Part shown: one piece after another, positions 17,769 to 44,055 of the stretch
How the letters are laid out: each line of letters begins with the position of its first letter
Position numbering within the stretch: position 1 is the stretch's first letter
Assembly (NCBI GenBank): GCA_963815255.1
Contig: CAWFGH010000009.1
Span: 63,467 to 127,466, forward strand
Length of the DNA stretch: 64,000 bases
Source: an uncultured delta proteobacterium
GTDB lineage: Bacteria; Desulfobacterota; Binatia; Binatales; Binataceae
Reading direction: 5' to 3'
Position numbers and translations under genes: made by a program
The notes under the pieces: model-generated
The model's input: the letters and a program-made list of their open reading frames with translations, nothing else
The model's database searches: none
What the model was told of the DNA's origin: nothing

Positions 17769-17784
17769 AGCTCAAGAGGCAGGC

Positions 17785-18972: not shown

Positions 18973-18973
18973 C

Positions 18974-19906: not shown

Positions 19907-20798
19907 GAGCGTCGCGTTTGCGCCGCTGCCTGAAGCTGATGCGGCGCTGCGAAAAGATTACGCACGGTGCGCGTCGATCACGCGCCGCTCCTCGTCCAAC
20001 TTTTACTACGCCTTCATGCTGCTGCCGGCGGAGCGCCGCCACGCGCTGTACTCGGTCTACGCATTTTGCCGCTTCGTCGACGATATCGCCGATGACGACT
20101 CGGTGGGCAAGCCGGTCGAACTGCTCATCCGCTGGCGCGAGGAACTCGAACGCGTGTTCAACGGCTCGCCGACTCATCCGATCTCCCGCGCGCTCGCCCA
20201 CAACGTGCGCCGCTTCGCGATCCCGCGCCGCTACTTCGAGGAGATAATCGACGGCGTCGAGATGGACCTGGAGCGTACTCGGTACGCGACCTTCGAGGAC
20301 CTTCGCCTGTACTGCTACCGCGTTGCCTCGGCGGTCGGTCTCGTGTGTATCGAAATTTTCGGCTATCGCAATCCGCGCACCCGCCAGTACGCAGAAAGTC
20401 TCGGCATCGCATTCCAGCTCACCAACATCATCCGCGACTTGAGCGAAGACGCCGGCCGCGGCCGTATCTATCTGCCGCTTGAGGATCTCGCGCGCTTCGG
20501 CGTGACCGAGGACGAAATCCTGCGCGGCGCCGACACGCTGGAGCTTCGTCGCCTGCTGGAGTACGAGGTCGAGCGAGCACGTTCGTTTTACGCGCAAGCG
20601 GAGCAGGCGCTTGCGGCCGAGGACCGCGCCGCGATGCTGTGTGCGGAAGCGATGCGCTCCATTTATCACGCGCTGCTCGAGCGTATCGCGAGCAAGGGTT
20701 GCGGCGTCGTCGGCCGGCGCTATCGTATTTCCACCCCGCGCAAGCTCTATCTGGTCGGCCGCACATGGGCCGGCACGCGGCTGCGGGCGAGGAACTAG
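19896..20798 (+). CDS. hpnD: Presqualene diphosphate synthase HpnD (squalene/phytoene synthase family)
   Basis: SNFYYAF and FCRFVDDIADD motifs. A probable TTG start overlaps the hpnC 3' end; the start is uncertain by a few codons. Confidence 0.8.
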   Translation: MKPESVAFAPLPEADAALRKDYARCASITRRSSSNFYYAFMLLPAERRHALYSVYAFCRFVDDIADDDSVGKPVELLIRWREELERVFNGSPTHPISRALAHNVRRFAIPRRYFEEIIDGVEMDLERTRYATFEDLRLYCYRVASAVGLVCIEIFGYRNPRTRQYAESLGIAFQLTNIIRDLSEDAGRGRIYLPLEDLARFGVTEDEILRGADTLELRRLLEYEVERARSFYAQAEQALAAEDRAAMLCAEAMRSIYHALLERIASKGCGVVGRRYRISTPRKLYLVGRTWAGTRLRARN

Positions 20799-20804
20799 CC
20801 CGCG

Positions 20805-22181
20805 ATGCTCGATCAGCGCGACGTCGTCGTGATCGGCGGCGGATTCGCCGGGCTGAGCGCCGCAGTTGCGCTCGCCAACCGCGGCTTTCGCGTCGCGGTG
20901 CTCGAACGCAAACCGGCCCTGGGCGGCCGCGCCTATTCGTTCGCCGACACAGAGACCGGTGACTTCGTCGACAACGGCCAGCACGTGCTGATGGGATGCT
21001 ACGCCGAGACGCTCAAGTTCCTCGATCGTATCGGCGCCAGCGGCCAGTTGGTGTTTCATCCTGATCTCGCAATCGAGATGCTCGAACGCGACGGGCGCGC
21101 CGGCGTGCTCAAGACCGCGCATCTGCCGGGCCCTCTCCACATGACCGCCGCGCTGCTGCGCTACCGGCTGCTAACGCCGCGCGAGCGGCTGAGCGCGATG
21201 ATCGCGGGGCTTCGGATGCTGCGGATGCATCGCCGCGACCGCGCGCGCCTGGGCCGGACGACCGTCAAGACGCTGATGGACGTGCTGGGGCAGGGGGAAA
21301 GGGCGCGGCACTGCTTCTGGTATCCGATTGCGATCGCGACGCTCAACGAGGATCCCGAACTTGCCTCGGCGGCTCTGCTGGCCGAAGTGCTAAAGCGCGC
21401 GTTTTTCTCGCGCCGCTCCGATTCCGCTTTTGTCTACGCCAAGGTCGGGCTAAGCGATCTCTACTGTCCCGGTTCCGTGCGGATGATCGAGGCAAGCGGC
21501 GGCCTGGTCGAGACTCGCGCGGTCGTCGAGGTCCTGGAGTTCGGGGGCGAAGGCAAAATCAAGGGCGTGCGCCTGCGCGACGGACGCCGTTTGCAGGCTG
21601 CGAACTTTATTGCCGCGGTTCCGCCCGCCCAGCTTGTGCGACTTCTGCCAGAAGGGGCGGGCGCAGATCCGTTTTTCGCACACCTGGGCGAGATTACTTC
21701 GTCGCCGATTGTCTGCGTCCATGCCTGGTTCGACCGCGAAATCACCGACGCTCCATTTGTCGGCTTCGTCGGCACGACCACGCAATGGCTATTCAACAAG
21801 CGTCGCATATTTGTCGACAACGGCGAGCGCGCCAACGGCTATTTGAGTTTTGTCATCAGCGGCGCGCGCAAGCTGGTCGACGCCGGCAACGAAGAGTTGC
21901 TCGACCTGGTGACCGGCGATTTGAACACGATGATTCCGGCCTCCCGCGACGCGCGCCTGCTCAAGGCCCTGGTGCTCAAGGAGAAGCAGGCCACCATGGC
22001 GCCGTCGCCCGAGTGCGACCGTTTGCGGCCGACTGTGCCGACGCCGATCGCAAACTTTTTTCTTGCCGGCGACTGGATTCAGACCGGCTTGCCGGCAACG
22101 ATCGAGAGCGCCGTTGCGTCGGGGCATGCCGCCGCCGCCGCTATCGCCGCGCGCGTAGGCGAGTCGGTGCCTCCGGCCTGA
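20805..22181 (+). CDS. hpnE: Hydroxysqualene dehydroxylase HpnE (FAD-dependent amine-oxidase/phytoene-desaturase family)
   Basis: N-terminal VVVIGGGFAGLSAAVALANRGFRVAVLE (GxGxxG FAD fold). Placed after hpnC and hpnD. Confidence 0.85.
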   Translation: MLDQRDVVVIGGGFAGLSAAVALANRGFRVAVLERKPALGGRAYSFADTETGDFVDNGQHVLMGCYAETLKFLDRIGASGQLVFHPDLAIEMLERDGRAGVLKTAHLPGPLHMTAALLRYRLLTPRERLSAMIAGLRMLRMHRRDRARLGRTTVKTLMDVLGQGERARHCFWYPIAIATLNEDPELASAALLAEVLKRAFFSRRSDSAFVYAKVGLSDLYCPGSVRMIEASGGLVETRAVVEVLEFGGEGKIKGVRLRDGRRLQAANFIAAVPPAQLVRLLPEGAGADPFFAHLGEITSSPIVCVHAWFDREITDAPFVGFVGTTTQWLFNKRRIFVDNGERANGYLSFVISGARKLVDAGNEELLDLVTGDLNTMIPASRDARLLKALVLKEKQATMAPSPECDRLRPTVPTPIANFFLAGDWIQTGLPATIESAVASGHAAAAAIAARVGESVPPA

Positions 22182-22187
22182 GCGCGT

Positions 22188-23219
22188 ATGGCTTCGCGAA
22201 TCGCACTGGTTACGGGCGCCAACGGCTTCGTAGGATGCTACGTGGTGCGGGCGTTGCTCGCGCGCGGGACCGCGGTGCGCGCGATGGTACGCAAGGGCGC
22301 CGACTTGCGCGCGCTTGAGGGTTTGTCGTGCGAGTATGCGTGGGGCGACCTGCGCGATGTTGCCGCGGTGGAAGAGGCGACGCGCGGATGCGACGAGGTC
22401 TACCACGTCGCTGCGGATTACCGGCTCTGGGTGCTCGATTCGGCGCCGATGTACGCCTCCAACGTCGAGGGGACTCGCAACGTCCTGGCAGCGGCGCATC
22501 GCGCCAAGGTTCGCCGCGTGGTCCACACCAGCACGGTCGGCGCTATCGGCATCCCGCACGGCGAATCCGGGCGCGAGGACTCGCCGGTTTCGCTCGGCGA
22601 CATGGTGGGACCTTACAAGCGATCGAAATTCCTGGCCGAGCAGGAGGCGCTCAAGGCGGCGCGCGAGGGTGTGCCGGTCGTGATCGTCAATCCGTCCACG
22701 CCCGTCGGCCCCAACGACTACAAGCCGACGCCGACCGGACGCATAATCGTCGATTTCTTGAATCGCCGAATGCCGGCCTTCATGGACACCGGGCTCAATC
22801 TGGTCGACGTCGAAGACGCCGCGGCGGGGCATCTGCTCGCCGCCGAGCGCGGCGTGATCGGCGAGAAATATATTCTGGGCGGCGAAAACCTGTCGCTGGA
22901 AGAAATGCTCGGCCGCCTGGCAAAACTGTCCGGCCTGAGCGCGCCCCGGATTCGCGTTCCGTACGCGGTCGCGTGGACGTTCGCGCTCGGCGCCGAGGCG
23001 GTTGCGCGTACGATCACCCGGCGCGCACCGCGCGCGAGCCTGACCGAGGTTCGGATGGCGCGCAAGCGGATGTTCTTCGATTCCTCCAAAGCGCGCGCGG
23101 CGCTGGGATACGCGCCGCGCCCGATCGATGACGCGCTTGCGCGCGCGATCGAGTTCTTTCATTCAATCGGCGCTGTGCAGAGGGCGCCGCACGGGCGTCA
23201 GTTTCGGCGTCCGGCCTGA
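22188..23219 (+). CDS. hpnA: Hopanoid-associated NAD-dependent sugar epimerase/dehydratase HpnA
   Basis: VTGANGFVG Rossmann motif and the YxxxK element (PYKRSK). Confidence 0.8.
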   Translation: MASRIALVTGANGFVGCYVVRALLARGTAVRAMVRKGADLRALEGLSCEYAWGDLRDVAAVEEATRGCDEVYHVAADYRLWVLDSAPMYASNVEGTRNVLAAAHRAKVRRVVHTSTVGAIGIPHGESGREDSPVSLGDMVGPYKRSKFLAEQEALKAAREGVPVVIVNPSTPVGPNDYKPTPTGRIIVDFLNRRMPAFMDTGLNLVDVEDAAAGHLLAAERGVIGEKYILGGENLSLEEMLGRLAKLSGLSAPRIRVPYAVAWTFALGAEAVARTITRRAPRASLTEVRMARKRMFFDSSKARAALGYAPRPIDDALARAIEFFHSIGAVQRAPHGRQFRRPA

Positions 23220-23238
23220 GGTGGAACCGGGGCCGGCG

Positions 23239-24138
23239 ATGCATCTGCTGTTTTCGACAATCGCTCTGCGGCCGTATGTGTTCGTGTTCCTGGGATTCTA
23301 CCTGGCGATCGCGATCGTCAATTTCGGCTTGCGCACGACGGTTCTGTTCACGGTGCTGACGTACGCGGTGGCATGGGCTTGCGAATGGAGCTCGGTGCGC
23401 AACGGCTTTCCGTTCGGGCTCTATCATTACGTCCAGGCGACGCGCGGCCGCGAAATCTGGGTCGCCGGCGTTCCCTTAATGGACTCGCTCTCGTTCACCT
23501 TTCTTTCCTTTGCGAGCTACACGCTCGCGCTGGCGCTGAGCGCGCCGCTTTACCGGCGCGGGTTTGACCTGCGGACGCTCGACACGTGGGAGCTCAGAAG
23601 CTCGCCGCGAGTCTGGCTGATGGCGGCGCTGTTCATGGTGATGATCGACATGGTGGCCGATCCGCTAAGCGTGCTCGGCGAGCGCTGGTTCCTCGGCAAA
23701 GTTTTCTGGTACGACCCGCCGGGGCCGCATTTCGGCGTACCGATCAGCAACTATCTCGGATGGTATTTCGTCGCGGCGGTAGCCGTGGCGATTTTCCAGT
23801 GGCTCGATCGCCGGCTCAATCGCGGCGGCAGCAAGCCGATGGGCGCAGTGCCGGCGGCGCCGTCGCGCGCGCTTTGGGGACCGGGGTTGTACGCCGGAAT
23901 GGTCGGCTTCGCAATCGTGATGCTGTTTCGTATCGGCGCGCGTGAAATCGGCTGGGCGGGAATTTTTATCTTCCTTCCGCTGCTGGCGTTGGCGCTCCAT
24001 ATCATGACGCGCGCCGAGTGCTGGGGCGACGCTGCCGCCGTCGAGCGCCATCTGGCGGACTTTCCCTTCGAGCAAGCGCTTGCGGTGTGGAGCGCGGCCG
24101 CGCCGCGAACGCTCGTCAAACGGCGCGGCGCCGCGTGA
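23239..24138 (+). CDS. Polytopic membrane protein, carotenoid-biosynthesis-associated (PF04240/DUF422-like) family, common in hopanoid clusters
   Basis: 300-aa protein with about 7 TM helices and the conserved region WFLGKVFWYDPPGPHFGVPISNYLGWYF. Confidence 0.55.
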   Translation: MHLLFSTIALRPYVFVFLGFYLAIAIVNFGLRTTVLFTVLTYAVAWACEWSSVRNGFPFGLYHYVQATRGREIWVAGVPLMDSLSFTFLSFASYTLALALSAPLYRRGFDLRTLDTWELRSSPRVWLMAALFMVMIDMVADPLSVLGERWFLGKVFWYDPPGPHFGVPISNYLGWYFVAAVAVAIFQWLDRRLNRGGSKPMGAVPAAPSRALWGPGLYAGMVGFAIVMLFRIGAREIGWAGIFIFLPLLALALHIMTRAECWGDAAAVERHLADFPFEQALAVWSAAAPRTLVKRRGAA

Positions 24139-24150
24139 CGCCGAGCCTGG

Positions 24151-25042
24151 TCAGGTTTCCGGCCGGCTCAGCGCTTCGAGCGCGGCGGCCAGCGCCGCTG
24201 TCGCGCGATTGAGGCTACGCATCATGCGTGCGAGTCCGACGACCGCCGCGGGATTGCGCAGCACGAAGCTCGCGGCCGCGAGCGGCCGCACCTCGCCGTC
24301 CGGCCCCGCCAGTTCCGCGCCCACGATTTCCTCGTCGACGGTGTCGAGTACCGCGCGCACGCACGCGAAGCGCAGGCCGCATCGATGGGCCTCGGCCGCG
24401 ACGGCGGCGCTTTCCATGTCGACCGCGAGCGCGCCGGTTCTGGTCCGGGCGTCGCGCTTGGCGGCGCCGTCTTTGAGAATCCGCGCCGCGGTCAGGATCG
24501 TTCCGGTTGTGAACGAGAGCCGACGCTGTCTCGAGCGCGGCCTGGAAGCGCGCGAGATCGGCGGGCGGAATCGCGATCGTTCTCCGCGCGGACTCGGCAT
24601 CCTCCCCGTCTAGAATGAGGCGGTCGGCGAGCACCAGGTCGCCGGGTCGCAGCTCTTCGCTGAGCGCTCCCGCGAGGCCGGTTGCAATCACGAGGTCTGT
24701 CGAAAGAGTTGGCGATAAATTTGGCGTGAGATTTGGCGACGGACTTGGCGATAGTTTTGGCGATGCAAACGATCGCATCGCGCGGCGCGCCGTATCGGCG
24801 GCCCGGCGTATTCCCAGCCCGGTTGCGATGCCGACGATTTCCGCGGATCCGAGTCGGCCACGAAAACCTCGCAGCCCGTCGATTCCGAGCGCGGTGCGGC
24901 TCTCAAGGCGGCGCTTGAAAGCGGCGGCCTCCCGCGCGAATGCGTAAAAGATCAGGATCACCGGGGTCTCAGCTTGAGCCGCGCCGCGCTTGCTAGCAAA
25001 ATTGCGCCCGTGGGGGCGCGCGTCAATAGGATTGTGCCACAA
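24151..25042 (-). pseudogene. hpnG: Hopanoid-associated phosphorylase HpnG (PNP/MTAN nucleosidase family) with a frameshift and an in-frame 12-bp x4 repeat insertion
   Basis: The N-terminal part (PVILIFYAFAREAA...VGIATGLG...GDLVLADRLILDG) and the C-terminal part (ALAVDMESAAVAAEAHRCGLRFACVRAVLD) are on the same strand but in different frames, with the change at about 24540-24600. A tandem repeat (a)tttggcg(x4), 24700-24760, encodes SPKLSPSPSPNLTPNLSPTLS. Confidence 0.6.
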
Positions 25043-25074
25043 GCGCGGCGGATTGTGCGCGCGCGACCGGGTCG

Positions 25075-25968
25075 ATGACGGAAGCGAAGTCCGTCATCTT
25101 CACCGCCGACGATTTTGGCGCTTCCGCCGAGGTCAACACCGGTATCCTGCGGGCTTATCGCCAGGGCGTGTTGCGCGGGGCGAGCCTGATGGTCGCGGCG
25201 CCGGCGCGCGACGCGGCGGCTGCGGCGGCACGCGAATGTCCCGACCTCGACGTCGGCCTTCATCTCGTCGTGTGCAAGGGACAAAGCGTGTTGCCGCCCG
25301 CGCGGCTGGGCGGGCTGGTCGACAGCGCCGGCCGCTTCGTCGAAAACCCGGTGAAGGGCGGGATGCGCTATTTTTTCAACCGCCGCCTGCGCAGCAGCAT
25401 CGCGGACGAGTGCCGCGCGCAGATCGAGCTCCACCTCAAACTGGTCGGCTATCTCAACCACATCGACGGCCATTTGAATTTCCATGTGCATCCGGTGATC
25501 AACGACATCCTGCTCGACCTGGCCGCGGAATACCGCGTGCCGTGCATCCGGCTGCCACGCGAGCCGGTGTTTACGACGCTCGCGCTCGCGCGCGACAACG
25601 CACCGCGCAAGTTGGTCGAGGCGGTTATTTTTCACGCGCTCTCCAGGCGGGCGCGGCGAAAGATGACCGAGCGCGGAATCAAATCCACCGACTGGCTCTT
25701 CGGGCTCCATCAGAGCGGCAACCTGAGCGAGCGCTATCTGCTCGACGTTATCGCGCGGCTCCGCCCGGGCCTGACCGAGATTTATAGCCATCCCGCGGCC
25801 GATATCGGTGGCACGCCACCGCCCGCGGCGGCGCAGCGCGAAGTCGAAATCCTGACCAGCCCGCTATTGCCGCTCGCGCTTACTCACGCGGGCGCACGCC
25901 TGACGAATTTCGCCGAACTCGCGCGCGCGCTCGATCAACCCCGAGCCCCTTCAGGCGCGCGGGGATAA
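25075..25968 (+). CDS. hpnK: Hopanoid biosynthesis-associated protein HpnK (YdjC/ChbG-like carbohydrate deacetylase)
   Basis: N-terminal VIFTADDFGASAEVNTGIL, with DGHLNFHVHP and the HP..D motif of the YdjC family. Divergent from hpnG. Confidence 0.75.
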   Translation: MTEAKSVIFTADDFGASAEVNTGILRAYRQGVLRGASLMVAAPARDAAAAAARECPDLDVGLHLVVCKGQSVLPPARLGGLVDSAGRFVENPVKGGMRYFFNRRLRSSIADECRAQIELHLKLVGYLNHIDGHLNFHVHPVINDILLDLAAEYRVPCIRLPREPVFTTLALARDNAPRKLVEAVIFHALSRRARRKMTERGIKSTDWLFGLHQSGNLSERYLLDVIARLRPGLTEIYSHPAADIGGTPPPAAAQREVEILTSPLLPLALTHAGARLTNFAELARALDQPRAPSGARG

Positions 25969-26085: not shown

Positions 26086-26133
26086 ATATCCAGGAAGGCT
26101 ATACCCAGGAAGGCTATACCAATGATGGACCAG
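26086..26133 (+). repeat. Tandem direct repeat ccaggaaggctatacc (2 full copies plus 1 partial) spanning the pepN start codon
   Basis: Read directly: tccaggaaggctataccc aggaaggctatacc aATGatggaccaggaaggcg. Confidence 0.6.
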
Positions 26134-28707
26134 GAAGGCGCTCCGCTCGCCGCCGACAAGGCTTCCGAATACAGGCTCCCGTCGAACGTGGTGCCGGAGC
26201 GCTACGAAATTAGCCTCACGCCCGACCTCCGCGCGTTCACGTTCGCCGGCGAGGAGAACGTGACGGTGCGCGTCATCACTGCGACCACCGACGTGGTCCT
26301 CAATGCGCTCGAGCTCGAGATTGACCGGGTCAGCGCCGAGCGCGGCAGCGCCATCATCGCCGGCAAGGCGGCGCTTGAGCCTGCGCACGAGCGCGCGCGC
26401 CTGACGTTCGATCGCGCGTTGGAGCCCGGCGAGTGGACGCTGCGCATCGCCTTTCGCGGCATCCTCAACGACAAGCTGCACGGCTTCTATCGCAGCACCT
26501 ACAAGGACGCGCAGGGCAATATGCATCTGGTCGCCAGCACTCAGTTCGAGGCGACCGACGCGCGCCGCGCGATCCCGTGTTGGGACGAGCCGGCGCTGAA
26601 GGCGAGCTTCAAGGTGCGCCTCGTGATCGACGAAGGCCTGAGCGCGTTTTCCAACGCCGGGGTCGAGAGCGAGCGCAGCCTTGGCGGCGGCAAAAAGGCG
26701 ATCGTCTACAAGGAGACGATCAAGATGTCGACCTACCTGCTCGCCTTTATCGTGGGCGAGTTCGAGGCGACCGAGCCTGTCGACGCCGGGACTCCACTGC
26801 GCATCGCGCACGTGCCGGGCAAGCGCGCGTTGACCGCATGGGCGCGCGAGATCGGCGCGTTCTCGCTCAAGTGGTTCGCCAACTATTACGGGTTGCCCTA
26901 TCCGGGCGACAAGCTCGACCTGATCGCGATTCCCGACTTCGCGTCGGGCGCGATGGAGAACCTGGGCGCGATAACGTTCCGCGAGACCGCTTTGCTGATC
27001 GACGAAAAGAGTGCCTCGCGCGCCGAACTCGAGCGCGTGGCCGACGTCGTTGCGCACGAGAACGCGCACATGTGGTTCGGCGACCTGGTCACGATGAAAT
27101 GGTGGAACGGCATCTGGCTCAACGAGGCGTTCGCCACCTTCATGGAGATGCTCGCCGTCGACGCCTGGAAGCCGAAGTGGAAGCGCTGGGAGAGTTTCTC
27201 GGTCTCGCGCACGGCGGCGATGGCGATCGACGGACTGAGCAGTACGCGGCCGATCGAGTTCACCGTGCTGAGCCCCGAGGACGCGCGCGCGATGTTCGAC
27301 GTGCTGACCTACGAGAAGGGCGCTTCGGTGCTGAGGATGCTCGAGCAGTATCTGGGCGCGGAGCGCTTCCGCACCGGCATCGCGGCCTACCTGCGCAAGC
27401 ATCAGTACGCCAACGCCGAGACCGGCGACCTGTGGGACGCGCTCGAGCAGGCTTCCGACGAGCCGGTGCGCAAGTTGATGGACTCGTGGATTTTCCAACC
27501 CGGCTTTCCGATCGTTGAAGCGGCTCTGGGAGCCGACGGCCGCTCGCTGACGGTGCGCCAGCGGCGCTTTTTTTATCTCGGCGAAAACGCCACCACCGCC
27601 GGGCACGATCAGCTCTGGCAGGTGCCGGTGATGGTGCGGGCGAAGACCGAAAAGGGCGTCACGACCCATCGGTTGCTGCTCGGCGGCCGCGAGGCGACGC
27701 TCGATTTGGGCGCACGCGTGGAATGGGCGCTGCTCAATGAAGGCGGCCACGGGTTTTTCCGCGTGCGCTACGCGGCGGATTTGCTCGCGGCGCTGGGCCG
27801 CAACCTGGGCGAGCTCAAGGCGGTGGAGCGCTACGCGCTGGTGAGCGATTCGTGGGCTGCGACGGTTGCCGGGATGTTGCCGCTTAAGGAATTCCTCGCC
27901 ATGCTGCGCGCGATGCGCGACGAGAGCGACCTCAATGTGTGGCGTGCGATGCTTTCGCCGTTGGCGTATCTGGACATGATCGTCAACGACGCCGAGCGTC
28001 CCATGCTGGCCGCGGCGGTGCGCGACATCGTCAGCGGCGCGGCGGCGCGCCTGGGATGGGACCCGCGTCCAGACGAGGACGAACTGGTGCGCCAGTTGCG
28101 CGGCACGCTGTGGGGCTCGATGGGCACGCTCGGCGACGACGGTGAGGTCCAGCGGCGCGCGGCCGAGCTCTATGCGCGCTACCTCAAGGATCCGTCCTCG
28201 GTGGACCGCGACCTGGTGCCGGCGGTGATCGCAATCCTGGCTTACGCCGGCGATCGCTCGCGCTACGAAGAGTTCAAGCAACACTTTAAGTCGGCGCGAA
28301 CCCCGCAAGAGGAGCAGCGCTATCTGTTTTCGCTTGCCAGCTTCCGCCGTCTCGAGCTTTTGCGCGAGACGATGGAGATGACGCTGAATGGCGAGGTGCG
28401 CACCCAGAACGCGCCCTACCTGATGCATGCGTTGCTGCTCAACACCGTCTGCCGGTACGAGGCGTGGGACTTCGTGAAGAAGCACTGGGAGGAGATGATT
28501 CGCAAGTTTCCCGACGCCGCGCTGCCCCGGATGTGCGAGGCGGTCGTCGGGCTGCTCGAGCGCGAGGCCGAGGTGCACGAGTTTTTCCAGGCTCATCGGG
28601 TAAGGCTCGGCGGCAAGATAATCGACCAGCATCTCGAGCGGCTGCGCGTGGCGGTGGCGTTTCGCAAGCGCGAGGGCGCGAATCTGGCCGCGGCGCTCAA
28701 GGGCTGA
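26122..28707 (+). CDS. pepN: Aminopeptidase N (M1 family zinc metallopeptidase)
   Basis: GAMEN exopeptidase motif and HEnaHmWFG...x18...E zinc-binding motif (VAHENAHMWFGDLVTMKWWNGIWLNEAF). 861 aa. Confidence 0.9.
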   Translation: MMDQEGAPLAADKASEYRLPSNVVPERYEISLTPDLRAFTFAGEENVTVRVITATTDVVLNALELEIDRVSAERGSAIIAGKAALEPAHERARLTFDRALEPGEWTLRIAFRGILNDKLHGFYRSTYKDAQGNMHLVASTQFEATDARRAIPCWDEPALKASFKVRLVIDEGLSAFSNAGVESERSLGGGKKAIVYKETIKMSTYLLAFIVGEFEATEPVDAGTPLRIAHVPGKRALTAWAREIGAFSLKWFANYYGLPYPGDKLDLIAIPDFASGAMENLGAITFRETALLIDEKSASRAELERVADVVAHENAHMWFGDLVTMKWWNGIWLNEAFATFMEMLAVDAWKPKWKRWESFSVSRTAAMAIDGLSSTRPIEFTVLSPEDARAMFDVLTYEKGASVLRMLEQYLGAERFRTGIAAYLRKHQYANAETGDLWDALEQASDEPVRKLMDSWIFQPGFPIVEAALGADGRSLTVRQRRFFYLGENATTAGHDQLWQVPVMVRAKTEKGVTTHRLLLGGREATLDLGARVEWALLNEGGHGFFRVRYAADLLAALGRNLGELKAVERYALVSDSWAATVAGMLPLKEFLAMLRAMRDESDLNVWRAMLSPLAYLDMIVNDAERPMLAAAVRDIVSGAAARLGWDPRPDEDELVRQLRGTLWGSMGTLGDDGEVQRRAAELYARYLKDPSSVDRDLVPAVIAILAYAGDRSRYEEFKQHFKSARTPQEEQRYLFSLASFRRLELLRETMEMTLNGEVRTQNAPYLMHALLLNTVCRYEAWDFVKKHWEEMIRKFPDAALPRMCEAVVGLLEREAEVHEFFQAHRVRLGGKIIDQHLERLRVAVAFRKREGANLAAALKG

Positions 28708-28736: not shown

Positions 28737-29732
28737 ATGTTGAGTCCGCGGGTTGCTCTGGTGATACCCGTTTTCAACGGGGCTTCCACAATACGGCGTG
28801 CGATTGAAAGCGCACTTGTCCAGCGGCCGGCTCCTCCGGAGGTCATCGTGATCGACGACGGCTCCACGGACGAAACCCGGCAGATACTGAATGGGTACGC
28901 CGACAGGATAAAAGTGATTCGGCAAAAGCGCCAAGGTCCATCGGCCGCCCGCAATGCCGGAGCAACCGCGGCCTCGGATGCCGCATACGTGTCGTTTCTT
29001 GATGCCGACGACGCATTGCTGCCGGATATGATCTGCACGATGGTGGGGCGGCTCGAATCAGCCCCGGCGTCGGTACTCGCGTTTTCCGATGTAATACCCG
29101 TGGACGATAAGGGACATGCCTTGGACCTATGCTTCATAGACGATTGGTTTGCGCATGCTCCCTCGCTTCAGGAACTCTTGACAACGTATTGGCCCATTCT
29201 GCCCAGCGCCGCGGTGATGAGGCGTAATGCGTGCCTGAACTGCGGAGGATTTAGTGATAAGTTCACGGCGCCCGGGTTTGAAGACCCATATCTCTGGCTA
29301 CGAATGCGCGAGCAGGGCGAGTTCGAATTCGTGGACGAACCGCTGGCGATTTATCGCACTACACCGGCCCTGGAGCGGATGCTGAAATATGCGGGCGGCT
29401 ACAAAATCTTTATGCAGCTGGTGAAGGAGCACTATGGCGTCTCCGGCGAAGGACTGATCAGGGAGATGTCGGCGAAATTCATGCATGCGTGGAATTTCGA
29501 AGCCGCGAAGGCGCTGCGTCTGGGCAATAAGGAGCGCGCCAGACACGCGTTTAAATGCGCGCTGAAGTACGGGCCTTCCACCTCGCGGGTGCGCTCCACT
29601 TCACGATGGCTGCGTACATTTTTGCCCCTGTCGGCGGCTCGTGCACTGAGCGGAAAATTCCTGCGTCGGACCGAAGTCCAAACTCATTGGAACTATTTCT
29701 TCGTCGAGAGACCGAGCCGAATCGTTTTTTAA
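28737..29732 (+). CDS. Family 2 glycosyltransferase (first gene of a lower-GC island)
   Basis: VALVIPVFNGASTIRRAIESAL...VIVIDDGSTDET...FLDADD (DxD) GT-A signature. GC content falls from here to about 32.3 kb. Confidence 0.7.
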   Translation: MLSPRVALVIPVFNGASTIRRAIESALVQRPAPPEVIVIDDGSTDETRQILNGYADRIKVIRQKRQGPSAARNAGATAASDAAYVSFLDADDALLPDMICTMVGRLESAPASVLAFSDVIPVDDKGHALDLCFIDDWFAHAPSLQELLTTYWPILPSAAVMRRNACLNCGGFSDKFTAPGFEDPYLWLRMREQGEFEFVDEPLAIYRTTPALERMLKYAGGYKIFMQLVKEHYGVSGEGLIREMSAKFMHAWNFEAAKALRLGNKERARHAFKCALKYGPSTSRVRSTSRWLRTFLPLSAARALSGKFLRRTEVQTHWNYFFVERPSRIVF

Positions 29733-29749
29733 ATATAAAGAGAAATCAA

Positions 29750-29944
29750 ATGGCGCGAATTGAATTCAACCTTCAAGTCCGGAATCCGCAAAACGGTATT
29801 GCCGTCAACGAGGCCCGCATCGATCTGACTTTCCCGGACACGGCGGTCGGAGACCTGCAAAGCCTTGAGAGAGCCGTTAAGACTGTTGTCGAAAAAGCTG
29901 TAGAGGCGATTAAGGAGCAACAGTTGCTGACGCTAAAGCGATAG
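29750..29944 (+). CDS. Small hypothetical protein (64 aa) in the low-GC island
   Basis: ATG preceded by aagagaaatcaa. The coding sequence MARIEFNLQVRNPQNGIAVNEARIDLTFPDTAVGDLQSLERAVKTVVEKAVEAIKEQQLLTLKR is AT-richer than the flanks. No recognised family. Confidence 0.35.
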   Translation: MARIEFNLQVRNPQNGIAVNEARIDLTFPDTAVGDLQSLERAVKTVVEKAVEAIKEQQLLTLKR

Positions 29945-29986
29945 CGATCTCGGCGAGCTGTGTTCGAGTTCCTGCCACCTCATTAT

Positions 29987-30388
29987 TCACCGGCATAAGC
30001 GAGCCGCGACCAGCGGATCGAGCGTATATGCCTTGCATGGTAATTCGCGGGGATTGGCGGGATTGTAGAGCGCTGCGGCAATACAATCCACTACATGCCG
30101 GGGTACGACTGACGTGATCATCAGCTCGTCCGCATATCCATCGTGAAACACGGCGACTGGTCTGGCGCTCCGTTCCAGGTACTTTGCATTTGCTGGTTGA
30201 GCAAGCCAGTGGCTCATGGCTTCGGCTATTCTTTGGCCAACCTCGGCATGGCTAAGGTCTGATTCAATTTGCAACGGCCCTAATTGGTCGAATCGTTCTT
30301 CTGGAGTCGCAAAACACGGATCGTGAGTTACTATAACGTGCGCATGATGACCGTGTTGGCTCTTCGTGAATACTATATAGCAGTCCAT
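29987..30388 (-). CDS. Hypothetical protein (133 aa), downstream of and co-directional with the methyltransferase-propeller gene
   Basis: ORF 59 nt downstream of the 30448..32280 gene on the same strand. No recognised motifs. Confidence 0.4.
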   Translation of the reverse strand: MDCYIVFTKSQHGHHAHVIVTHDPCFATPEERFDQLGPLQIESDLSHAEVGQRIAEAMSHWLAQPANAKYLERSARPVAVFHDGYADELMITSVVPRHVVDCIAAALYNPANPRELPCKAYTLDPLVAARLCR

Positions 30389-30447
30389 TCTCTTGATCGC
30401 TTGTTTAGCTGTCGGAGTCTACTAGATCGCCAATTCGGGAGTTGTTT

Positions 30448-32280
30448 TCACAAATAGAGTTCGGACAGGTCAGGCTGATCGTCAATGAACAGCACATGGC
30501 CGGAGCTGCCCATCGTATAGCTGGTCAGTGCGGTTCTCGCTGCCGCGAGAGGTCCGGCAAGGGCTGTGAGGTCTCGATGATTCCAGCCGTCACCTGCCCC
30601 TTGGGCCGGGTCGTACCACAACTCGTGCAAATGATCGCTCGTATCCACTAAGAAGACATGGCCGGAGTTGCCGAGTGTGTAGCTGGTCAATGCGGTCCCG
30701 GCGGCCGGCACAAGCTCAGCGGAACGGGTGAGGTCGTTGTGACTCCAATCCGGACCGTCCGCTGGGTCATGCCGCAGTTCGTGCAAATGATTGCTCGTAT
30801 CCATGAAGAAAACATGACCGGAGCTGCCCAGAGTGTAACTGGTCAATGCGGTCCCGATGGCCGGTAGAAGCCTGGTGGAAGCGGTGAGGTCGTTGTGATT
30901 CCAGTCCGGACGCTTAGCCGGATCGTATCGCAGTTCATGCAAGTGGTTACTCGTATCAATGAAGACGACGTGGCCGGAGCCGGCCAGAGTATAGCTAGTC
31001 AATGCGGTCCCGGCGGCTGGCAGAAGCTTGGTCGAGGCGGTGAGGTCGCTGTGATTCCATCCGGGACCCTTAGCCGGATCGTACCGAAACTCGTGCAGGT
31101 GGTTACTCTCATCCACGAAGAAAACATGACCGGAGCTGCCCAGAGTATATCCGGTCAATGCGGTCCCGGCGGCGGGCGCAATCCCGGTGGAGGCCGTGAG
31201 GTCGTTATGATTCCAGTCCGGACCCTGGGCCGGGTCATACCATAGTTCCTGCAGATGGTTGCTCGCGTCCACGAAGAAGACGTGGCCGGAGCTGCCCAGA
31301 GAGTAGCTGGTCAATGCGGTCCCGGCGGCCGGCGAAAGTCCGGTGGGCGAAGTGAGATCGTTGTGATTCCAGCCGGGACCCTGAGTCGGGTCGTACCACA
31401 GTTCGTGCAGATGGTCGTTCGCGTCCACGAAGAAGACGTGACCGGAGCTGTTGAAAGAGTAGCTGGTCGTTGCGCTGTTAGCTCCCGGCCGCGGAGCCCC
31501 GGTAGCTGCAGTCAGGTCGTTATGGTGCCAAACCCCAGCAGCATCGTGCTCTTGCCTGACAAGCTCAAGAAAGAATGGAACAAAGTGAAACGTACCTCGC
31601 TTGGTCTCCGTGAGCGGCTTGCGAAGCGCACGCATGGTCGGACGTCTTCCTTCAGGCAAGGGCCTCAGGCCATCGCCGCTATGGTGATTTGCGACGGGCG
31701 TATATCCATAATTCAGCTCGGCATACCGGCAGGTGAGATAGACCGCGTCGGCGAAGGTATCGTCGAATACGACTATGCCTCCGGGCTTGAGCAATTGGTG
31801 AACGAGGACCAGGTCGACGAACACGTTGTCAAAAAGATGGCTGCCGTCAATGAAAGCGAAATCGAAATTTCGCTTCTGCCGTATGAGTTCGGACAGGAAG
31901 AGCTCAGAGGCCTCTTCTTTGATCTCGACGAATTCCTCGAGGCCGGCGTCCCTGACATTTCTTCGACCCGCACCGTGGTATTCGATAGATTCATAAGGGT
32001 CGATCACGAGATGCGCCCCGATCCCTGCACCATTTTCGAGGAGGGCTTCGAGGATAAAAAGAGTAGATAGCCCCGACGCCATCCCGATCTCCACCGTGCG
32101 GGTAGCGCCTTCTGAAATGCAGATATCCCTGATAAACGCGCCGCGGTCGGGCGTGACGCCATCGGGGAAAATGGGACGTTGGCTTCCGTCCTCTCCGCTT
32201 ACGACGCCACGGCTATAGAGCTCTTCGATGAATCTTCGGAGAAGGGTGGCTTCCTGCTTCTTCGGTTTTGTGGCCATCAA
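30448..32280 (-). CDS. Fusion protein: N-terminal class I SAM-dependent methyltransferase (Methyltransf_24/O-MTase-like) plus C-terminal seven ~47-aa tandem repeats resembling PLL/tectonin-type beta-propeller lectin blades
   Basis: The N-terminus has EIGMASGLSTLFILEAL...FAFIDGSHLFDNVFVDL...LKPGGIVVFDD. The C-terminus has 7 copies of W-N-H-N-D-L-T-x-S-T-x-x-x-P-A-A-G-T-A-L-T-S-Y-T-L-G-S-S-G-H-V-F-F-V-D-x-S-N-H-L-H-E-L-W-Y-D-P-A-x-G-P-D. Confidence 0.7.
   Translation of the reverse strand: MMATKPKKQEATLLRRFIEELYSRGVVSGEDGSQRPIFPDGVTPDRGAFIRDICISEGATRTVEIGMASGLSTLFILEALLENGAGIGAHLVIDPYESIEYHGAGRRNVRDAGLEEFVEIKEEASELFLSELIRQKRNFDFAFIDGSHLFDNVFVDLVLVHQLLKPGGIVVFDDTFADAVYLTCRYAELNYGYTPVANHHSGDGLRPLPEGRRPTMRALRKPLTETKRGTFHFVPFFLELVRQEHDAAGVWHHNDLTAATGAPRPGANSATTSYSFNSSGHVFFVDANDHLHELWYDPTQGPGWNHNDLTSPTGLSPAAGTALTSYSLGSSGHVFFVDASNHLQELWYDPAQGPDWNHNDLTASTGIAPAAGTALTGYTLGSSGHVFFVDESNHLHEFRYDPAKGPGWNHSDLTASTKLLPAAGTALTSYTLAGSGHVVFIDTSNHLHELRYDPAKRPDWNHNDLTASTRLLPAIGTALTSYTLGSSGHVFFMDTSNHLHELRHDPADGPDWSHNDLTRSAELVPAAGTALTSYTLGNSGHVFLVDTSDHLHELWYDPAQGAGDGWNHRDLTALAGPLAAARTALTSYTMGSSGHVLFIDDQPDLSELYL
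30470..31500 (-). repeat. About 141-bp nucleotide-level tandem repeats (about 7 copies, ~80-85% identical) encoding the propeller blades
   Basis: The recurring plus-strand string cagttcgtgcaaatgatcgctcgtatcca(c/t)gaagaa(g/a)acatggccggagctgcccagagt(a/g)tagctggtcaatgcggtcccggcggccgg repeats every ~141 nt. Confidence 0.7.
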
Positions 32281-32466: not shown

Positions 32467-33261
32467 TTACTCGCCTTTGAATTTGGGCGGGCGCTTTTCC
32501 AGAAACGCCGCGATCCCCTCGGAGCCGTCGGCGGTGCGGCCCATGTCGGCGATCCACTCGGTCTCCAGCTCCATCTGATCTTCGAGCGTCCGGGTCGCGC
32601 TCTCGGCAAACAGGCGCTTGACGCCCAAGTAGGCGCGCGTCGGCCCCTGGGCGAAGCCCTTCGCCAGCCCCTCGGCGGTCGCCATCAGCTCAGCGTCAGG
32701 CACCACGCGGGTCACGATTCCCATCTCGTGGGCCTCGCGCGCCGAGAGCACACGGTTGGTGAGCGCCAGGTCCATCGCCCGCCTTAGGCCCACGATGCGC
32801 GGCAGGAAGTAGGTCGAGGATCCATCGGGCGTGAGCCCCGCCCGCGTATACGCCATCGTGAACTTTGCCGACTCCGCCGCTATCACGATATCGCCCGCAC
32901 AGGCGAGACTCATCCCGGCACCGCCGGCCGCGCCTTGAATCGCCATCACCACCGGCGCCTTCATCCGGTTGAAGCGTGAAATCGCCTTGTGCAGAGAAAA
33001 GGTGACCTTCTTGAAGTAGGTGGGCAGCATCTCTTTGGGCTGCGCGGCGAAGCTCTTGAGGTCGCCGCCGGCGCAGAAGAGCTTGCCCGCCGCGTTTATC
33101 AGCACGGCGCGAACGCTGGGGTCTTCCTCGCAGCGCAGCGATACTTCCATCAGGTCGTGCGCGAGTTCGGCGTTGAGCGCGTTGGCGGCTTCGGGCCGGT
33201 TGAGCGTGACGTAGGCGACGTTATTGCGGACGTCGAAGAGCAGCGTCGAATAGTCGGCCAT
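32467..33261 (-). CDS. Enoyl-CoA hydratase/isomerase (crotonase superfamily)
   Basis: VAYVTLNRPEAANAL...LFCAGGDLK...MAIQGAAGGAGMSLACAGDI oxyanion-hole motifs. Start taken at the internal Met (MADYST). Confidence 0.8.
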   Translation of the reverse strand: MADYSTLLFDVRNNVAYVTLNRPEAANALNAELAHDLMEVSLRCEEDPSVRAVLINAAGKLFCAGGDLKSFAAQPKEMLPTYFKKVTFSLHKAISRFNRMKAPVVMAIQGAAGGAGMSLACAGDIVIAAESAKFTMAYTRAGLTPDGSSTYFLPRIVGLRRAMDLALTNRVLSAREAHEMGIVTRVVPDAELMATAEGLAKGFAQGPTRAYLGVKRLFAESATRTLEDQMELETEWIADMGRTADGSEGIAAFLEKRPPKFKGE

Positions 33262-33396
33262 TGGTTTCCTCCGGTTCTCTCGTAGATCTTGCGTCGATCT
33301 CGCGTAAACCTTGCATGAACCTGGCGCAAACTTTGCGCCGATTCTATCCGCAATTAGATCAACCGCGCCGGTTTCGCGCAACCGGCGCGAGCGTCC

Positions 33397-38037: not shown

Positions 38038-39588
38038 ATGAATCCGCGACCCGCAATTGAGCGCCTCGCCGGCGTGATGGTGCCGCTGTTTTCGTTGCGC
38101 ACGCGCAGCGACGCGGGAATCGGCGACATCGCCGCGCTCGACGCCATGACTGGCCTCGTATCGTCGATGGGCGATCGCGCGATCCTGCTCCTGCCAATCG
38201 ACGAAACCTCGCCCGGCGAGGCCAGTCCTTACAGCGCGCTCAGCGTGTTTGCGATCGATCCGATATATATCGGACTCGACGGACTCGCGGGCGTCATTCC
38301 TGGCGACGTGGAGCGGGTGCGCCGCGAACTCGCGCACGTGCCACTCAGCGATCGCTTGACGATCCGCGCCGCGCGGCTCGAATTGCTCGAGGCCGCGTTT
38401 CGCCATTTCACGGCGCGCGGCGACGAGCGCGCGGTTGTCACGGACTTCGCCGCGCGCCATCGCGGATGGCTCGACGATTATGCGCTCTTTCGCGCGCTGA
38501 AGGATCGCTTCGATCTCGCGCCATGGGAGGACTGGCCCGACGAGCTGCGCCGGCGCGAAACCGCTGCGCTCGATCGCGCGAAAGCCGAACTCGCGCCGGC
38601 GATCGACAAGTACATGTATTGGCAATTCCTGGCGCATCGCCAATGGACGGAAGTTCACGCCCACGCGCGTGCGCGCGGCGTGATGCTCGGCGGTGACCTG
38701 GCGTTTTCGCCGGCGCACGACAGCGCCGAAGTATGGGCCAACCAGGAATTGTTCGATTTCAATCGCACTGTGGGTGCGCCGCCCGACGCCTTCAATCCGG
38801 AGGGGCAGAAATGGGGTCTGCCCTCGCCGCGATGGGATCGGATTCGCGCGGACGGATTCGCGTTGCTGAGAAAACGGATCCGTCACGCACGCGAGCTTTA
38901 CGATTTCATCCGGATCGATCATGTGGTCGGGCTCTACCGGACCTTTTCATTCGGCCTGGTGCCCGGGGCCAAAGGCGGGTTCTCGCCGGCGGCGGAGCCT
39001 GAGCAGCGCGCGCTGGGCGAAGCGGTGCTCGGCGCGATACTCGAGGAGGCGGGCACGACGATCGTGGTTGCCGAGGACCTTGGCGTGATACCGCCCTTCG
39101 TCCGGGCCTCGCTGAGCGCGCTCGGCGTGCCGGGTTACAAAGTGATGCGCTGGGAGAAAATCAACGACGGCACACCTGCCGAGGCGTTCGTCTCGCCTGC
39201 GGATTATCCCGAAATCTCGCTCGCCACGACCAGCACCCATGACACCGATACGCTGGCCGAATGGTGGGACACCGCGCCGGCGGACGAACGCGCGCGCATG
39301 CTCGCGCTGCTGATGCCTGCACCGCGGCGACACGCAATGCGCGCATCAGGTTTCGAGCAGATGCGCGACGCGATGCTGGCGGCGCTGTATGCGTCGCCGT
39401 CGCGGATGGTGATCATCCCGATGCAGGATCTTTTTGGATGGCGCGAGCGGATAAACCTCCCCGGCACCGTCGGACCCGCGAACTGGTCGTGGCGGTTGCC
39501 GCATGCGATCGAAGACATCGGCCACGACCCCGCGTCGTCGGCGCGGGTCGCCCAATTGCGTGCGATGGCCATCCAGGCCGGCAGATAA
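38038..39588 (+). CDS. malQ: 4-alpha-glucanotransferase (amylomaltase, GH77)
   Basis: VMVPLFSLRTRSDAGIGD N-terminus, with IDHVVGLYR, GAPPDAFNPEGQKWGLP and ATTSTHDTDTL catalytic-region motifs. Confidence 0.88.
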   Translation: MNPRPAIERLAGVMVPLFSLRTRSDAGIGDIAALDAMTGLVSSMGDRAILLLPIDETSPGEASPYSALSVFAIDPIYIGLDGLAGVIPGDVERVRRELAHVPLSDRLTIRAARLELLEAAFRHFTARGDERAVVTDFAARHRGWLDDYALFRALKDRFDLAPWEDWPDELRRRETAALDRAKAELAPAIDKYMYWQFLAHRQWTEVHAHARARGVMLGGDLAFSPAHDSAEVWANQELFDFNRTVGAPPDAFNPEGQKWGLPSPRWDRIRADGFALLRKRIRHARELYDFIRIDHVVGLYRTFSFGLVPGAKGGFSPAAEPEQRALGEAVLGAILEEAGTTIVVAEDLGVIPPFVRASLSALGVPGYKVMRWEKINDGTPAEAFVSPADYPEISLATTSTHDTDTLAEWWDTAPADERARMLALLMPAPRRHAMRASGFEQMRDAMLAALYASPSRMVIIPMQDLFGWRERINLPGTVGPANWSWRLPHAIEDIGHDPASSARVAQLRAMAIQAGR

Positions 39589-39719
39589 GCCGCTCCAAAC
39601 CATCTTACGTCGTGCCGCAGCGCCTGATTGCGTCTCTTGCCCGTGTAACGTAATGATCTTCCGGACTGGCCGCTCAAGGCCGACCTGGGTCTGCGTGGCC
39701 CGGGCGAATCGGCAAACGC

Positions 39720-41105
39720 GTGGAATCGCGAAGGGGGAATCGAGCCGTCGTATCGACTGATCACAGGATCTCCACACCCGTGACATCCGAGCGCAGCCTG
39801 CTGCTTCGCGCGGCGATGCTGGTACCGTTGTGGACGGCGGTTGTAATCGGCCTGGTGGTACTGATCGCCGCGCTGCCCAGCCGCGCCCGAAAATGGGACT
39901 ACAGCATCTATTACAGTTCGGCGCTGGCGATGCGTCAGGGGATGAATCCCTACACCACTGACCTGACGCCGCTTGCGCGCTCGCTCGGGTTCGAGCTGGA
40001 CAAGATCAATCACGCGACCGATCCGCCGACCTTCGTGATGTGCTTCGTGCCGGTGACGCTGCTGGCGCCGCGGCCCGGATTTTATGTCTGGACCGCGCTC
40101 AACGGGTTCTCGTTTTTGCTCGCGTTATTTCTGCTTTTTTGCTGGACTCCGGGTCTCGATCGCGATGTCGCCCTGGCGATCGCCGCTCTGACGATCCTTT
40201 TTCCGCCGGTGATCGATCACCTGGTCTGGGGCCAGAACAAAATGCTGGTCCTTCTGATGTTCGTGCTGATGCTGCGATGGATGGAGCGCGGAAAGGACGC
40301 ATCGGCCGGACTGATCCTGGCCTTCGCAAGCCTGCTACGCGTTTTTCCGCTGCTGATGGTTGGCTATCTGATCCTGATGAAGCGATGGCGCGTTCTTGCG
40401 TACACGATGGTCGGGCTGATCGCCGGAGGGCTGGTGACCGTTGCGCTGGTGGGAGTAGGCCACTCCATCAGCTTTCTCCTTGCTTCCGGCTATCTGACCC
40501 AGCAATGGGCGCAGGCGTTGCCGGGCAATATAGCAATCCCAACGACGGTGTCGCGGATGTTCTGGTATTTCTTCGGCGTTCATCTCGGAGTGACGCTCGA
40601 TTGGGCGAGAAGAGCCGCCTCGTGGGCGGCCGAACTGGCGCTCCTTGGCTTGACCGTCAAAGCTACAGTCGCGAGACCTTCGCGTGACGATCCTGACGGC
40701 CGCTTGTTCAGCCTGTGGATCATGACCGCTATCCTCGTCTCGCCGACTTCATGGTTTTACTACCTGGTACTCCTCACGATTCCGATGGTGAAGCTGAGCG
40801 CGGCCGCGGCCAACAACCGGACCAGCGCGCGCGCGCTGTGGGCCGGAGTCGCGTGCTACACCCTCGCATGGCTCTATTTCACCCTGGTCGACATGCATTC
40901 GCCCGAACTCGCGTTGCATCCGGACGCCCTGGTGTGGCGGGTCGGCGCTTCGCCGGTGGGGCTGCTCGCCTATCTCTCGCTCTATTGGTTCGCTGTCGAT
41001 CCCGCTGCGGTTCAGCAGCTGTCGCAGTCGACGGCCTCGCAAGCGGCGGATTCAGGTTCGGCGGATTCGATCGACGAGGTACAACCGGCTCGCACTGCGG
41101 TCTGA
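39720..41105 (+). CDS. Polytopic membrane glycosyltransferase, GT87/DUF2029 family (polyprenyl-phospho-sugar dependent)
   Basis: About 12 TM helices with a conserved N-terminal loop (YYSSALAMRQGMNPY). It is a paralogue of the 44056-45417 product. The start may be the internal Met at 39816. Confidence 0.6.
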   Translation: MESRRGNRAVVSTDHRISTPVTSERSLLLRAAMLVPLWTAVVIGLVVLIAALPSRARKWDYSIYYSSALAMRQGMNPYTTDLTPLARSLGFELDKINHATDPPTFVMCFVPVTLLAPRPGFYVWTALNGFSFLLALFLLFCWTPGLDRDVALAIAALTILFPPVIDHLVWGQNKMLVLLMFVLMLRWMERGKDASAGLILAFASLLRVFPLLMVGYLILMKRWRVLAYTMVGLIAGGLVTVALVGVGHSISFLLASGYLTQQWAQALPGNIAIPTTVSRMFWYFFGVHLGVTLDWARRAASWAAELALLGLTVKATVARPSRDDPDGRLFSLWIMTAILVSPTSWFYYLVLLTIPMVKLSAAAANNRTSARALWAGVACYTLAWLYFTLVDMHSPELALHPDALVWRVGASPVGLLAYLSLYWFAVDPAAVQQLSQSTASQAADSGSADSIDEVQPARTAV

Positions 41106-41307
41106 CGATCGTCCGATCGTAAACGGACTCGACCGCCCGCTGCTGGATCGCATTGCGAGCCAGTTGATGGCATGTTAACCGGAATCGTTTGCAACTAAAT
41201 CAAGGCTGGACGGACAGCCGGAACTTTCGACCGGCGTCGGCATAGCAAGACTAAGCCGCCGCGCGAGGGCGCGGCGGCCGGAGGCGAGCGGAACACGCAC
41301 AGGTAAT

Positions 41308-42801: not shown

Positions 42802-42946
42802 GAATTTATGCGTGGCCGGACCCTTCAGGCCCGGGCCGCATTCCTATAAAAGATTTATATCGGCTAGCGAATTTACCGGGCGCCTGACCTTGACCGGCGG
42901 GCGTCGAAGCCGGTTCGGAGTTGGCGACAATGCGGGAGGGCGGTAA

Positions 42947-43939
<993 letters not shown>

Positions 43940-44055
43940 GGGTTCCATCGGGGTGGCCCCGTCCGGGAGGACGCGCGGCGCTTGATCGATCGCTCGAGAT
44001 TGACTGATCGCTCGGCCTGAGTGCGTGGCGGCGGTGTGTCCACGCGAGGTGGGGA

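Follow-up and report, generated by a model that had tools for sequence, protein, structure and literature searches.

Why would a bacterial methyltransferase carry a lectin-like propeller? The question is raised by a gene at 30448..32277 (minus strand) of the window, by which we mean the whole stretch of DNA analysed here, 64,000 nucleotides of contig CAWFGH010000009.1 (positions 63,467 to 127,466) from an uncultured soil bacterium of the Binataceae. The gene, recognised from the list of open reading frames (ORFs), its translation and Pfam matches, joins an O-methyltransferase to a seven-bladed beta-propeller in one polypeptide. The fusion is a new domain architecture made of known parts and is limited to one uncultured lineage. 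O-methylated glycans are widespread in bacteria, and little is known about how methyltransferases find or process such polymers. A methyltransferase with a built-in multivalent lectin would, if that is what the protein is, offer a compact and testable model of substrate tethering or product reading. Moreover, a function for the fusion would add to what is known of a poorly known phylum, in which the Binataceae are uncultured.

Domain layout, catalytic residues and rarity of the fusion

The ORF as listed spans 30448..32280 on the minus strand and opens with TTG followed directly by ATG, so the start is likely to lie at 32277 and the product to have 609 amino acids. Residues 1-250 (31528..32277, minus strand; core to about residue 240) form a methyltransferase domain with a class I Rossmann fold of the family-3/Methyltransf_24 type, and residues 250-609 (30451..31530, minus strand) form the propeller, made of seven repeats of 52-54 amino acids that start at residues 250, 303, 355, 407, 459, 511 and 565. 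In the DNA, the core of the array (30605..31468, minus strand) was reported by Tandem Repeats Finder with a 156-nucleotide period, 5.5 copies, 80% matches and no indels. An earlier note, made from the sequence alone, had claimed a class I S-adenosylmethionine (SAM) methyltransferase fused to a seven-blade lectin-like propeller, and Pfam, the AlphaFold2 model and Foldseek agree on this; the repeats are, however, longer than the approximately 47 amino acids that it gave, and at 61-81% pairwise identity they are similar, not "near-identical." Neither a signal peptide nor a transmembrane segment was found in the protein, its N-terminus has no hydrophobic stretch, and the highest 19-residue hydropathy (1.64) lies within the Rossmann core. 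Together with the need for SAM, this suggests a cytoplasmic protein that would act in the cytoplasm or at the inner membrane face.

The catalytic part matches Methyltransf_24 (PF13578) over residues 62-174 and the full profile (positions 1-105 of 105; E 2e-23, 83.5 bits against a Pfam cut-off of 26.3), with a weaker match to Methyltransf_3 (PF01596; E 1e-9, 38.3 bits against a cut-off of 22). Residues 1-250, modelled separately from 70 homologues, have a mean predicted local distance difference test score (pLDDT) of 93.8, and their closest fold is that of metal-dependent O-methyltransferases. The features that define class I are all present, namely a Rossmann-like fold, a glycine-rich SAM motif (E63-x-G65) and an acidic residue ending strand 2. 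The key residues E63, G65, D93, H147 and the putative metal triad D144/D172/D173 are invariant in the 70 homologues, as are S71 and L73. A HMMER alignment with the SafC-like structure 5lhm matches D144 to the metal-binding Asp that comes first there (FIDAD), and D172/D173 to its D-N pair. H147 stands at the position of the catalytic Lys of CCoAOMT-type enzymes; the roles of this Lys and of the metal ligands we take from established knowledge of family 3. Given the invariant catalytic residues and the alignment of the metal ligands, the enzyme appears to be active.

The nearest sequence relatives with structures in a family-profile search are catechol, CCoA and norbelladine O-methyltransferases. 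Among enzymes of solved structure, the family-3 cation-dependent O-methyltransferases (COMT, CCoAOMT and SafC-like enzymes; PF01596) stand nearest in sequence (family-profile E 2e-18), and their SAM motif and acidic metal ligands align with those of the fusion enzyme. Unlike them, the fusion enzyme has Asp (D173) instead of Asn as third metal ligand, His147 in place of the catalytic Lys, extra N- and C-terminal elements and the 360-residue propeller. In fold, the catalytic domain also resembles MeT1, the 1-O-methyltransferase of the mycobacterial 3-O-methylmannose polysaccharide, which has no binding domain and is not among the best 60 of 72 sequence-profile matches; the substrate specificity of MeT1 cannot be transferred to the fusion enzyme.

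The combination of the two domains is rare. A word-indexed search of 5.8 billion clusters found it in about nine clusters only (P0001-P0009, 64-98% identical), whose names say nothing functional beyond "predicted O-methyltransferase YrrM." An exhaustive HMMER search of 1.84 billion 50%-identity representatives returned 4,936 relatives of either domain, a single one of which (P0002) has both. All carriers come from Binataceae-type metagenomes, and no account of a methyltransferase-lectin fusion turned up in literature searches. The suggestion of the earlier note that the architecture is undescribed therefore held, the domain-architecture search giving one 50%-identity cluster without a functional name. 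One apparent second, divergent fusion, P0222 (621 amino acids, from a metagenome), was rejected, being the same methyltransferase domain duplicated in tandem within one polypeptide. P0087-P0089, candidates for close orthologues consisting of the methyltransferase only, were likewise set aside: they are frameshifted full-length fusions from assemblies with fragmented neighbouring genes. The frameshift-broken genes of loci L013 and L014 (10001-11880 in each), with their fragmented neighbours, gave rise to these spurious database proteins.

Relatives of the separate parts are found more widely. Non-fused homologues of the methyltransferase, about 50% identical and 310-340 amino acids long, occur in Binataceae and "delta-proteobacterial" metagenome-assembled genomes (MAGs) and end in a TPR-like hairpin (Pfam PF07719; TPR matches at profile positions 253-295). 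This tail stands at the propeller's place and was thus replaced by it. The propeller belongs to a very large family of stand-alone proteins of about 360 amino acids, mainly from Actinobacteria, which also serves as a terminal module with peptidase A4, astacin, GH25 lysozyme, amidase_3, patatin or PASTA domains; its closest relative (48% identity) is the C-terminus of a multidomain protein of 1108 amino acids.

Fold, family and pockets of the propeller

The earlier note had named structure prediction of the C-terminal part as a check, and AlphaFold2 closes that part as a seven-blade propeller. In the whole-protein model, residues 250-609 have pLDDT values above 90 and form seven blades of four strands each, with the strand at the N-terminal edge of the domain (251-254) completing the last blade, the usual ring closure of propellers. 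The first 36 Foldseek matches in the PDB are all lectins, headed by the seven-bladed PLL2, PLL5, PHL and PLL of Photorhabdus (E ~1e-15, target TM score 0.77) and followed by BP39L/CV39L and the six-bladed AAL, AFL, AOL and RSL. In sequence, the propeller matches the AAL-type Fungal_lectin family (PF07938; 55.1 bits against a Pfam cut-off of 25.3). A direct phmmer search with the propeller against PDB sequences gave chance matches only, so that a family profile was needed; one built from 29 stand-alone homologues matched AAL (E 1e-11), SapL1, AFL/FleA and AOL (E 1e-11 to 2e-7), and no PLL-family protein at E ≤ 1. The NCBIfam models for beta_propeller_lectin (E 4e-14, 52.4 bits) and for the BP39L family (NF052349; E 1e-12, 47.7 bits) match far below their respective cut-offs of 200 and 400. 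The tectonin family gave no Pfam match at E ≤ 0.1 and is absent from the best structural matches. Sequence thus assigns the propeller to the AAL "Fungal_lectin" family and not to PLL or tectonin, while its resemblance to PLL and BP39L is one of fold and blade number. Consequently, the PLL/tectonin-type lectin that the earlier note had seen here was correct for the seven-bladed lectin fold and incorrect for the family.

Comparison with the known lectins sets out what has been kept and what has changed. With the six-bladed fucose lectins of the AAL family (AAL, AFL/FleA, AOL, RSL and BambL; PropLec6A), homology is detectable in sequence: the blade of about 50 amino acids, the pattern x-V-Y/F...E-x-W/Y...G-W and the Glu and aromatic pocket residues are shared, and pockets are likewise expected between neighbouring blades. 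Unlike these lectins, the fusion propeller has seven blades instead of six, has His in place of the fucose-binding Arg in every blade, and forms part of an enzyme with a predicted cytoplasmic location. BP39L/CV39L (PropLec7C) and the PLL/PHL family (PropLec7A) share the seven-bladed fold, and the propeller can be superposed on BP39L, with identities of 13-19% for the two groups and 14-17% for the PLL family in structural alignments. The known lectins of both groups are stand-alone proteins implicated in host interaction, whereas the fusion propeller is linked to an enzyme. The Streptomyces lectin SL2-1 is a member of an unrelated lectin group.

Lectins of the AAL family hold fucose through Arg and Glu/Gln, which bind O3-O5, and through a Trp/Tyr stacked against the sugar (PMC3858362). 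In each of the four AAL blades aligned with it, the propeller family has its His (Q-H-V-x-Y; G-H-V-F-F in the window protein) at the position of the AAL Arg, its Glu (in H-E-L-W) at that of the AAL Glu, and the next aromatic residue and the Trp of G-W at those of the AAL Tyr/Trp. The window protein has the His, the Glu and the Trp of W-N-H in seven of seven blades. Two positions after the Glu, the residue varies: blades 1, 2 and 6 have Trp, blades 3-5 have Arg and blade 7 has Tyr. The pocket is therefore kept but chemically changed, and the fucose binding implied by the earlier note's comparison is not to be assumed, since His has taken the place of the hallmark Arg throughout. Across the large bacterial branch of AAL/BP39L propellers, conservation of the His-Glu-aromatic pocket suggests that the preferred sugar is not fucose.

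The blades also bear traces of exchange with one another. Within each protein, interior blades (2-6) are up to 0.77-0.91 similar, whereas blades of the window protein compared with those at the same position in orthologues reach 0.60-0.73; blades 1 and 7 retain positional orthology. Interior blades are thus closer to each other than to their orthologous counterparts, which indicates concerted evolution by recombination within the array.

A possible role in glycan methylation and its alternatives

We give an even chance to the following answer to the question posed at the outset, which takes up the targeted glycan methylation suggested in the earlier note: the protein would methylate sugar hydroxyls, and its multivalent, lectin-type propeller would tether it to a repetitive glycan. 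The enzyme would be a divalent-metal- and SAM-dependent O-methyltransferase of the cytoplasm in which the usual short TPR-like C-terminal tail was swapped for the seven-bladed propeller. Between its blades, the propeller would present as many as seven nearly equivalent pockets, in each of which a His, a Glu and two aromatic residues occupy the positions of the AAL sugar site. Through these pockets it could bind a repetitive glycan multivalently, either a polysaccharide or a lipid-linked or glycolipid intermediate on the cytoplasmic side. Binding would keep the catalytic domain on the polymer, where it could methylate sugar hydroxyls placed by the metal at D144/D172/D173. A neighbouring glycosyltransferase, where present, might build or extend the same glycan. 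In the window, this is a family-2 glycosyltransferase gene (GT2; 28740..29732, plus strand) convergent with the fusion gene and already seen by the earlier note (Pfam Glycos_transf_2, E 2e-31); no NCBIfam equivalog matched it at cut-off.

Several lines of evidence argue for this proposal. The propeller is related to lectins in both sequence and fold, the pocket residues are kept in every blade, and its family is joined elsewhere to cell-wall and glycan enzymes (GH25, amidase_3, PASTA) as well as to peptidases, as would be expected of a portable binding module. GT2 genes adjoin the methyltransferase in three lineages, the catalytic domain has a MeT1-like fold, and the fusion protein has no signal peptide or transmembrane segment. 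In L001 and L003, moreover, GT2 homologues (40-45% identical) come immediately after the non-fused methyltransferase homologues, which lends some independent support to a partnership between methyltransferase and glycosyltransferase. Other observations weigh against it. The loss of the Arg in seven of seven blades removes a key AAL contact with fucose, and in blades 3-5 the family and the orthologues have Trp where the window protein has Arg (E-L-W to E-L-R). In the bacterial His-type seven-blade subfamily, no member has a ligand on record. Furthermore, the replaced tail is TPR-like and TPRs usually make protein-protein contacts, the neighbours of the non-fused homologues are mostly housekeeping genes, and most loci that carry the fusion have no GT2 neighbour.

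Lectin or carbohydrate-binding modules that guide catalysis are known from the ricin-type lectin domain of polypeptide GalNAc-transferases, from the O-antigen chain terminator WbdD and from the carbohydrate-binding domain of Wzt. What these share with the proposed mechanism is the concept that a glycan-binding module places an enzyme on a polymer or reads a terminal modification; their folds and chemistry differ from those of the fusion enzyme, and the likeness is one of concept, with no homology claimed. To our knowledge, the lectin-domain logic of the GalNAc-transferases has not been described for any methyltransferase. The propeller might also read the enzyme's own product, given that PLL-family lectins bind O-methylated sugars (PMC5584973; PMC6943638). 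In such a reader-writer arrangement, which we think unlikely, the propeller would recognise O-methylated or deoxy sugars like PLL2 and PHL do, and the enzyme would dock on its own products and methylate a cytoplasmic polysaccharide in a processive or templated manner.

The main alternative function for the propeller, doubtful in our view but to be taken seriously, would be that of a non-carbohydrate adaptor for protein contact, oligomerisation or a small molecule, replacing the TPR-like tail of an enzyme whose substrate is catechol-like, a lipid head group or a protein. The hairpin of the non-fused homologues and the catechol, CCoA and norbelladine O-methyltransferases among the nearest structurally characterised relatives would fit such an adaptor, as would the missing AAL Arg and the report on PLL3 that such pockets can hold non-sugar ligands, for example a Met side chain (PMC6943638). 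It is harder to square with a propeller whose homology to lectin families extends beyond fold to sequence, whose Glu and aromatic pocket residues are kept in every blade, and whose family is typically joined to enzymes acting on cell-wall glycans, or with the GT2 genes of three lineages. Another explanation, compatible with a glycan-tethered methyltransferase and not exclusive of it, sees the fusion gene as a passenger on a small mobile island by which a surface glycan is varied, for instance as protection from phages or lectin-bearing predators; the gene would then serve strain-level glycan diversification instead of core metabolism. We consider this improbable: the window locus has no integrase, transposase, tRNA or flanking repeat, the island genes have no match in defence or phage libraries (PADLOC and PHROGs), and the site is stably inherited across related genomes. 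Signs of mobility nevertheless exist, in that low GC (guanine plus cytosine content) and low GC3 (GC at third codon positions) mark six fusion-bearing loci (L011-L015 and L017) and the module has at least three genomic contexts (the window/L011/L015 type, L013 and L014). Module proteins are 69-75% identical between loci where flanking genes are 87-94% identical, adjacent small ORFs are shuffled in order and orientation, GT2 was gained in one lineage, and copies of the small ORFs lie beside rve transposase genes in L019.

A last possibility is that the repeat region is misassembled or part of a decaying pseudogene, in which case the fusion would not be a functional protein. Blade number differs among metagenomic orthologues, which may have 7, 6 (P0002, P0006 and P0007) or 3 (P0009), and several close homologues that seemed to consist of the methyltransferase only are frameshifted copies. 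However, these copies stem from the assemblies with fragmented neighbouring genes mentioned above, while a frame of 609-618 amino acids is intact in independent ENA, JGI, NCBI and Logan assemblies, catalytic and pocket residues are conserved, and the model closes as a complete seven-bladed ring, all of which leaves an artefact or pseudogene scarcely credible. P0006 comes from a MAG contig that shares an identical p133 (a small ORF beside the fusion gene) with a contig carrying a seven-blade copy, which makes repeat collapse possible, and the six- and three-blade variants may have arisen in this way during short-read assembly. The tethered sugar methyltransferase is the best supported of these readings. 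Work on it would also give an entry to a large uncharacterised branch of bacterial AAL/BP39L propellers, comprising thousands of proteins that are often joined to cell-wall enzymes.

The low-GC island and its surroundings

The fusion gene shares an island of low GC and GC3 (28737..32280) with GT2 and two small ORFs, between genes for an M1 aminopeptidase (26122-28707) and an enoyl-CoA hydratase (32467-33381). In 1-kb steps, GC is 0.55-0.58 at 29-32 kb compared to 0.63-0.69 in the flanks, and GC3 is 0.52-0.70 in the four island genes compared to 0.80-0.875 in flanking genes. The stretch 29001-32000 is also the most deviant in tetranucleotide composition of the entire 64-kb window (z = 4.5), so the low-GC segment reported in the earlier note is borne out by each of the composition measures, including those that it had proposed.

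One of the small ORFs, p59 (29750..29944, plus strand; 64 amino acids), has tblastn matches of 76-85% identity in L011-L015 and L017, and no match in Pfam, NCBIfam, PADLOC or PHROGs. The other, p133 (29987..30388, minus strand; 133 amino acids), lies 57 nucleotides downstream of the fusion gene on the same strand, adjoins the fusion gene in L011-L017 and belongs to a narrow, Binataceae-restricted family of 21 clusters (54-98% identical), one of them named Candidatus Binataceae. The two always occur together, in four different orders or orientations, and are fused as one ORF in L013 and L019 (window, 29750-30388; L011, 11912-12578; L013, 12106-12901; L014, 12042-12718; L019, 8001-9679). In L019, copies of p59/p133 are duplicated without the fusion gene, near rve transposase genes, with a module GC of 0.594 compared to 0.56-0.57 in the flanks. 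The pair may be an independent two-gene mobile unit.

Fusion, p59 and p133 stand between the same flanking genes in a Candidatus Binataceae MAG (L016; GCA_035533175.1) and in the metagenome contigs L011, L012, L015 and L017; the module is present in two further contexts in L013 and L014. Module GC is 0.56-0.59 in L011-L015 and L017, compared to 0.62-0.66 in their flanks. Relative to the window, the fusion of the syntenic relatives is 69% and p133 74-75% identical, while flanking proteins reach 87-94%. The window differs from these relatives by inversion of the p59/p133 segment and by the presence of GT2, which is missing in L011, L012, L015 and L017. The same arrangement, including GT2, recurs in four independent JGI contigs and is therefore not an assembly error; GT2 is an addition specific to the window's lineage version of the locus. 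No inverted or direct repeats that would explain the inversion or mark the island borders were found, and promoter and terminator scans were uninformative. Since relatives share both its position and its low GC, the module did not enter the window genome recently. Thus, of the horizontal acquisition suggested in the earlier note, the compositional island stands and a recent origin does not, only GT2 being lineage-specific; the module behaves like an old, compositionally distinct and occasionally mobile island within Binataceae.

Beyond the island, in two loci (L002, 11816-14209; L005, 11054-13234), a non-fused methyltransferase homologue is followed immediately by a large ORF (726-797 amino acids) that has no Pfam match. 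In the window, a hopanoid cluster lies upstream of the island (15705-25968), with squalene-hopene cyclase (15705-17768), Dxr, HpnC, HpnD, HpnE, HpnA and HpnK (25075-25968), all above NCBIfam cut-offs, and a Caroten_synth-family membrane protein at 23128-24138. A link between this cluster and the fusion was set aside, since the module occurs in other genomic contexts and GT2 does not match HpnB or HpnI. A second glycan gene group (38038-45417), of normal GC, conserved in L011 and 6-13 kb from the island, encodes a GH77 4-alpha-glucanotransferase, two GT87 membrane glycosyltransferases, a methyltransferase-GT2 fusion (41308-42801) and an NAD-dependent sugar epimerase; it could supply the glycan of the fusion enzyme. 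Another stretch of lower GC (4445-6841; 0.57-0.58) holds a TonB-dependent receptor apparently divided between two ORFs, one for the CarboxypepD_reg N-terminal part (4445-5536) and one for the beta-barrel (5696-6841), followed by an ExbB-like gene (6936-7628). Finally, AT skew falls to about -0.27 at 23001-24000 and 40001-41000, over predicted membrane proteins (Caroten_synth family and GT87), and is probably an effect of codon composition.

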